Of a stretch of DNA of 4,596 nt, positions 3,985 to 4,357 are shown in pieces. The notes beneath the pieces are model-generated. The model was given only the letters and a program-made list of their open reading frames with translations. It did no database searches and was not told the DNA's origin. Position numbers and translations under genes: made by a program. Origin of the DNA: Escherichia coli. GTDB lineage: Bacteria; Pseudomonadota; Gammaproteobacteria; Enterobacterales; Enterobacteriaceae. Position 1 is the stretch's first letter; every line of letters starts with the position of its first letter. The DNA is taken from the NCBI RefSeq assembly GCF_003334815.1, contig NZ_QOWO01000076.1. One strand, given 5' to 3'.

Positions 3985-4357
3985 ACACAGACGGCCATCT
4001 TTTGTAAAATGGATGCCGTTTTAAGTGAGATTCTGATTTTCAAATTGTTCCGGACTGAGACCGCCACACCAACTGTACCATCGCCAGCGATTGTAATCGC
4101 ACTCGATATAATTAAGTAAGTTTGCTGATTTTGCTGTTTACTGCGACAGATGTAAAGCTGTGGTGATTCATGCAGACTAAGTTCACGGACTCCGGCAGTA
4201 ACACCGATGCATTCTGCAAGCTTCAGATCTTAACTACGAAATTCATGCGAATGGTGTTTACGTTTTTTTACTGGTTGAAACTGTTTTGTCTTGTGAGTCA
4301 CCTCTGACTGAGAGTTTACTCACTTAGCCGCGTGTCCACTATTGCTGGGTAAGATCA
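3985..4357 (-). mobile_element. Internally deleted, decayed IS3-like remnant: left IR, the first ~50 codons of a dead orfA fused to the last ~30 codons of orfB, then a diverged right end
   Basis: The reverse complement of 4261..4357 reads TGATCTTACCCAGCAATAGTGGACACGCGGCTAAGTGAGTAAACTCTCAGTCAGAGGTGACTCACAAGACAAAACAGTTTCAACC, i.e. the IS3 IRL and orfA 5' end as I recall them, but with the start codon changed (ATG to AAG) and a 1-nt deletion. Homology to orfA (...RSKQQNQQ) stops near 4118 and jumps to the orfB C-terminus ([29 protein letters not shown], stop at 4021..4023). Sequence 3985..4020 resembles the IS3 IRR only weakly (~21 of 39), so the lower boundary is uncertain. Confidence 0.7.

Follow-up and report, generated by a model that had tools for sequence, protein, structure and literature searches.

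The segment between positions 3,985 and 4,357 of the stretch analysed here, 4,596 nt of Escherichia coli DNA (contig NZ_QOWO01000076.1 of assembly GCF_003334815.1, hereafter the window), is very probably an inert fossil of an insertion sequence of the IS3 group. This dead piece of the E. coli IS3 is an ordinary one: it has lost its middle and one tip, retaining the terminal repeat IRL and no usable IRR, and it sits at essentially one inherited site beside the iron-citrate uptake (fec) genes. RefSeq already annotates it as two IS3-family pseudogene pieces, the orfB piece as 'incomplete; missing N-terminus'. With no transposase, one usable end and no target duplication, the remnant is predicted to be unable to transpose or to be mobilised in trans, and its sole demonstrable activity is a passive one, that of offering a stretch of homology with which other IS3 sequences can recombine. 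By itself it is of little importance, being one among many IS fossils in the mosaic DNA near fec.

Table 1. Parts of the IS3 remnant and neighbouring features, in window positions.
Feature	Position	Strand	Counterpart or remark
IS66 tnpC, 3′ two-thirds	to 1077		
Phytase-like esterase gene	1316–2689	-	
3′ end of an IS3-family element	about 2950–3132		
Isolated IS3-type IRL stub	3127–3168	-	39/42 identical to 4320–4361, same orientation
End of an IS5-family, IS903-like element	3170–3345		
ariR/ymgB-family gene	3425–3718	-	
Expected site of the 13-nt IRR tip, non-IS3 sequence	3991–4003	-	Left arm of a hairpin with 4005–4019
Inner former IRR, heavily mutated, TCCATtTTAC kept	4004–4020	-	Last IS3-derived sequence
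orfB 3′ end, stop codon and inner IRR	4115–4004	-	IS3 nt 1134–1245
Last 31 orfB codons and stop (TAA at 4023–4021)	4021–4115	-	RefSeq: IS3 family transposase, incomplete
4-nt filler TTAC (minus-strand letters)	4119–4116	-	No IS3 counterpart
Deletion junction and filler	4116–4119	-	Between IS3 nt 238 and nt 1134
IRL, leader and orfA 5′ part	4357–4120	-	IS3 nt 1–238
Decayed orfA 5′ part	4120–4292	-	IS3 nt 66–238; RefSeq: hypothetical protein; frameshifted; internal stop
IRL of IS3, 39 nt, tip TGATC at 4357	4319–4357	-	39/39 in the K-12 IS3A alignment
Omptin (OmpT-like) gene, interior fragment, plasmid-type, 70 nt	4358–4427	+	Putative original target, IRL side
IS1 end	from about 4428		Cuts the omptin fragment on the right

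The IS3 of E. coli K-12 is a 1258-bp member of the IS3 group of the IS3 family and carries insE/insF; the copy IS3A of strain MG1655 served as the reference for the alignments. The remnant is colinear with it on the minus strand, with a single junction (Table 1). Window 4123–4354 matches K-12 IS3 with 89.4% identity over 235 nt (E=5e-80), window 4004–4115 pairs with the 3′ end of IS3 over 112 nt, and BLAST matches to plasmid copies of IS3 end at window 4004. Descent from IS3 is apparent from this significant colinear homology over both end regions. A sequence-only reading of the same DNA had described the 5′ end of orfA fused to the 3′ end of orfB by an internal deletion of about 0.9 kb with its junction near 4118, and the alignment bears this out, giving a loss of about 895 nt (IS3 nt 239–1133) and a junction at 4116–4120.

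Set beside K-12 IS3, the remnant shares the IRL and leader, 66 of 66 nt down to position 4292, and colinear orfA 5′ and orfB 3′ parts of about 88% identity; it differs in lacking the interior of about 895 nt, the 13-nt tip of the IRR and the 3-bp duplication, and in an interior that is about 12% diverged. In the orfA part 148 of 169 aligned nucleotides are identical (21 substitutions), and there are three indels. The start codon has changed from ATG to AAG at 4292–4290 and is followed by a 1-nt deletion, as the earlier reading had proposed; three further changes that it had not listed are the loss of 2 nt, the gain of 3 nt and an in-frame stop, GAA having become TAA. The −1 and −2 indels compensate each other such that the reading frame is regained after seven codons. 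The coding end of orfB is identical to IS3 at 83 of 94 positions (11 differences by script, 12 counted by eye), and its substitutions are mostly synonymous, with seven synonymous (stop codon included) and four non-synonymous by a hand count. In both IS3 and the remnant the orfB stop codon falls inside the IRR, and the 18 nt around and after this stop are identical to IS3 at only about 11 positions.

Functional members of the IS3 family have overlapping orfA and orfB genes with a programmed −1 frameshift giving OrfAB, a DDE (rve) domain in OrfB, terminal inverted repeats of the form 5′-TG...CA-3′ on both sides, and a 3-bp direct duplication of the target. Little of this is left. First, the paired reading frames are reduced to orfA codons ~1–58, which lack a start codon and are broken by frameshifts and a stop codon, and the final 31 codons of orfB. 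Secondly, the missing interior took with it the frameshift site and the whole DDE catalytic domain. Thirdly, the two terminal repeats that define an IS3-family element and a MITE alike are reduced to one, with the IRL matching at 39 of 39 positions and the IRR tip at 3 of 13. Fourthly, there is no 3-bp target duplication at the remnant, the IRL being flanked by CAA (4358–4360) and the opposite end by CAG (3988–3990), and the left flank is also not the other half of the omptin target.

The right end was the main point on which the sequence-only reading went astray, since it held that both termini had been kept and placed the outer boundary of the IRR at 3985, where the flank reads AAT. The orfB stop codon (4023–4021) fixes the register of the alignment, and the tip is thus expected at 3991. 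The 13 nt at this site match the IS3 IRR at 3 positions and the element's own IRL at 2, lack a terminal CA, and are unrelated to any IS3 IRR. The match of about 21 of 39 reported for the putative IRR is reproduced against the IS3 IRR, in the register 3991–4029 only, the tip contributing 3 matches and the inner 26 nt the other 18; when the right end is compared with the element's own IRL, 17 of 39 positions match, which is at chance level (best score of shuffled sequences, 16.2±1.3). No inverted repeat linking the two ends of the remnant was detected by a repeat finder. In strain H2 the mutated patch after the orfB stop is slightly closer to IS3, which supports an end of the homology at TTAC (window 4004).

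This odd right end could alternatively be genuine, such that the remnant derives from a distinct IS3-group ancestor whose true IRR was the divergent sequence at 3985–4020 and both of whose ends are retained. The interior lends this some colour, as its divergence of about 12% from IS3 lies past the 95% identity used as the threshold for naming a new IS (PMC3189936), and the compensating −1 and −2 indels together with a AAAAAAACG run present in another remnant suggest a variant lineage that was once functional. The remnant's own IRL, however, is that of IS3 at all 39 positions, while the putative tip matches it at 2 of 13 and is without the TG...CA terminus, and a transposase requires similar ends. 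Plasmids CP091385.1 and NZ_CP010192.1 carry remnants of an IS3 variant that have lineage-specific substitutions in common with that of the window, namely CGCTGGCGATGGTAC (R-W-Y), Q for K near the end of orfB, and the AAAAAAACG run in orfA; they differ from it in having other internal deletions and a canonical or near-canonical IRR ending GGATCA. The CP091385.1 sibling, which differs from the window orfB tail at 5 of ~95 nt (by eye), has the R-W-Y and Q substitutions and yet ends in the canonical IS3 IRR, ...GGGTAGGATCA. The odd right end of the window remnant is thus attributable to damage and loss of the tip and not to an alternative IRR, and we consider a distinct ancestor with its own IRR very unlikely.

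Of the earlier suggestion that a different ancestral element might be involved, what stands is that the interior comes from a diverged sub-lineage of IS3; the canonical IRR of the sibling speaks against anything further. The synonymous bias in the orfB tail, the frame-restoring indels and the recurrence of AAAAAAACG in another remnant suggest that part of the ~12% divergence arose in an IS3 variant that would once have been functional, the rest presumably being decay. An intact member of this lineage was not found in either a DNA scan or a protein search with an OrfA fragment. The DNA scan, in which a degenerate-codon pattern of the lineage motif was run against 100,044 species-representative genomes, returned as its sole match a 249-bp contig with the same remnant sequence; this contig, from a record titled Bacillus sanguinis, is assumed to be contamination, and the result also weighs against the distinct ancestor considered above. 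The protein search, for which the OrfA fragment was repaired, returned mosaics only and no intact variant OrfA, and no genome was found with a full-length parent at the remnant's site. IS3 relics with assorted internal deletions seem to be common in E. coli. We note that IS3 copies in NZ_CP010192.1 (locus ~830–900) and in O26:H11 str. 11368 (1540–1560) have small deletions between short direct repeats, GTAAACAGCA in orfA and CTGCGTGGAA in orfB (about 44 nt).

The distribution of the remnant was surveyed with a 51-nt probe spanning the deletion junction, searched against 5426 complete E. coli genomes. The junction occurs at 1724 places in 1695 of these, with a median of one and a maximum of three per genome, and 34 of the places are on plasmids. 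The contexts inspected (the fec-island chromosome, strain H2 at ybhI, E. coli plasmids and Salmonella plasmids) all have one and the same block of IS1, the omptin fragment (omptin′), the remnant and the ariR-like gene. About 31% of complete E. coli genomes have this block next to fecIRABCDE, and some IncF-type plasmids carry it as well; in E. coli genomes and plasmids the left flank never occurs apart from the remnant (linkage in 1700 genomes). The remnant therefore moves as passenger cargo inside the block and not alone. The unique junction is a stable marker for this block as it travels, in E. coli, Shigella and Salmonella, between chromosomes and plasmids of the IncF type. On plasmid NZ_CP018207.1 (locus 2476–5077) the remnant and ariR-like gene are bracketed by two copies of IS1 in what looks like a composite IS1 unit, an arrangement that would explain how the block moves between replicons.

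MITEs are thought to originate by internal deletion of an IS, and their usual definition was used for comparison with the remnant (PMC3189936). The remnant is like a MITE in being small, lacking a transposase and having arisen by internal deletion of an IS, and differs in lacking one terminal repeat and a target duplication and in being unamplified, its behaviour being that of a fossil. The sequence-only reading had nonetheless proposed a MITE-like unit mobilisable in trans. In its full form this proposal has a miniature IS3 keep both ends, be mobilised in trans by intact IS3 copies and become amplified, and the perfect IRL, the presence of IS3 copies in most E. coli genomes, and the finding of the junction at a second locus, between both canonical inverted repeats, in one draft genome could all be counted in its favour. 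The search for further copies with target duplications which that reading called for gives a median of one copy per genome in the same block with identical flanks everywhere, and no duplication, and the tip of the IRR is gone; the second locus already had an IS3, and the mosaic copy there reflects conversion (see below), in a form absent from all 5426 complete genomes. An essentially single copy, no target duplication and an unrelated tip are what the reading itself had named as telling against it, and the proposal, already largely refuted by the present data, is extremely improbable.

A structurally much better candidate for mobilisation in trans is, potentially, a 477-bp IS3 derivative on plasmid NZ_AP024127.1 (2488–2964 of the locus). 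It likewise has the 5′ part of orfA fused to the 3′ part of orfB, but it represents an independent deletion with other break points in IS3-proper sequence, both of its inverted repeats are intact, and it is flanked by a 3-bp duplication (CTT/CTT). Other apparent mini-IS3 matches, those in two BLAST pieces, were set aside: the one inspected consists of two adjacent full copies of IS3, and the others are assumed to be alike.

The history proposed for the fossil has four steps. A slightly diverged IS3 variant would have inserted in a plasmid-type omptin gene, with its IRL beside ...CAACACTTT. An illegitimate deletion of ~0.89 kb, from orfA codon ~58 to orfB codon ~258, would then have taken the frameshift site and the DDE domain. 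A rearrangement would next have removed the 13-nt IRR tip together with the other half of the omptin gene, such that the stump became joined to the AT-rich ariR/ymgB-like segment, and finally IS1 would have cut the omptin fragment 70 nt from the IRL. We infer the order of the internal deletion, the tip loss and the IS1 cut. The first and last of these steps are suggested by the right flank, since window 4357–4428 is 95.8% identical over 72 nt to an omptin gene of plasmid NZ_CP059918.1; a flank from the interior of omptin indicates that the element inserted into this gene and that the cut by IS1 came later. No other omptin sequence or empty site lies to the left of the remnant in the window, and the left flank is thus not the other half of the target. 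We note that RefSeq calls a 20-aa 'hypothetical protein' across the omptin fragment.

As a patch of homology the fossil serves two kinds of exchange, a deletion involving the IRL stub (Table 1) and patchwise gene conversion, in either direction, with live copies of IS3. The first is illustrated by the genome counts, in that the IRL with its omptin flank occurs in 2063 genomes compared with the 1695 that have the junction, about 370 more. Strain 5-1 has the IRL stub fused to the omptin flank and has lost the remnant, the ariR-like gene and 3 nt, CAA. The strain 5-1 type is a deletion between two direct 42-nt repeats lying 1.19 kb apart; homologous exchange plus slippage could have produced it, as could an end-adjacent deletion.

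Gene conversion is indicated by several patterns. First, the initial 66 nt of the remnant are 100% IS3 while the following 172 nt are ~12% diverged, which by our own calculation has a chance of ~2e-4 under uniform divergence. The perfect IRL and leader probably derive from gene conversion, although functional constraint in the ancestor could be an alternative explanation. Secondly, the search with the OrfA fragment returned proteins with the same junction that are mosaics of IS3-proper and remnant sequence, protein P0003 being a second, different mosaic. Thirdly, one of these mosaics lies in draft genome GCA_036314525.1, where a phosphotriesterase-like gene and cobU enclose a 364-bp copy with this junction and both canonical IS3 inverted repeats, flanked by AGG and CCG and so without a target duplication. 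An ordinary, slightly damaged IS3 occupies this site, identically flanked, in 483 complete genomes. Compared position by position, the 364-bp copy agrees with the resident IS3 at nt 67–134 and 1147–1258 and with the remnant at nt 146–236 and across the junction, and no such form is present in the 5426 complete genomes. A mosaic at a pre-existing IS3 site without duplication argues for gene conversion of the resident IS3 by the remnant and not for transposition. An assembly chimera was considered for this copy and is unlikely, as the two sequences share just 11 nt at the left switch point, too short a stretch for an assembler to change k-mer path. A metagenomic mosaic contig with 1.8x coverage may be an assembly chimera and is left out of the conclusions.

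The alleles form a series, with the window type at one end, then alleles in which conversion to IS3-proper sequence extends further from the IRL, and at the other end the resident IS3 converted at another locus. On a small scale the series shows clearly how a dead IS and its live counterparts can recombine, by gene conversion in patches and by deletion between repeats. We speculate that the remnant may, by ectopic gene conversion, copy its 0.89-kb deletion into a live IS3, and that the converted copy would then be a true precursor of a MITE, open to mobilisation by IS3 transposase. An element long dead might in that way both inactivate the IS3 copies resident in a genome and give rise to a miniature one; we regard this as an unlikely extension of the data.

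That the fragment has instead been domesticated, with its IRL promoter and a hairpin kept to control the downstream ariR/ymgB-like gene, is hardly credible: the remnant and this gene are co-oriented and always linked, with the gene 270 nt further on along the same strand, the IRL and leader are perfectly conserved, and a plus-strand hairpin at 3991–4019 has a folding energy of −14 kcal/mol (z=−2.5), but this hairpin lacks significance when folded on the other strand, that of the ariR-like gene (z=−1.2), a terminator scan is empty, promoter-like sites do not rise above background, Rfam gives no match, ~370 genomes are without both remnant and gene, and a diverged ariR-like homologue occurs without the remnant. 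This diverged locus, on another plasmid, has homology to the window only up to 3933, 70 nt short of 4004. An RNA gene or terminator at the remnant was likewise considered and rejected, there being no Rfam match and no terminator call, and the hairpin being only moderately unusual. The hairpin itself is imperfect (ACGGCCATCTTTT / AAAATGGATGCCGT), pairing non-IS sequence with the mutated patch after the orfB stop, and is followed by TTTT on the plus strand; template-switch mutation and selection for a terminator are candidate sources of the cluster of mutations that makes it.

The window as a whole is 99.9% identical to E. coli chromosomes in a mosaic region just upstream of fecIRABCDE. Positions 1–75 do not match the IS66 tnpC of the 99.9%-identical genomes, nor anything elsewhere in their 28-kb locus, which points to a rearrangement inside IS66 in the source genome. 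The isolated IRL stub directly adjoins the terminal repeat of the neighbouring IS3-family element, which we take to be IS629-like, and this looks like nested IS insertions. Between the terminal repeat of the IS903-like element and the ariR-like region there are 14 extra nt (aatcgatattacaa; window 3346–3359) that are absent in strain H2, where the IS5-family element is full length, and the IS903-like ends of the window and of H2 are perhaps different insertions. At the other side of the remnant, a 2.45-kb segment encoding an ester cyclase, a GlxA-type regulator and an MBL-fold hydrolase lies in some genomes exactly at the IRL tip, replacing 15 nt of omptin, as on plasmid p1493-3 (6264–8755 of the locus) and on Salmonella pNEW1. 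Among complete E. coli genomes no more than 9 have this junction. The pNEW1 match is 85% identical, includes the remnant and seems to come from an assembly rich in errors.
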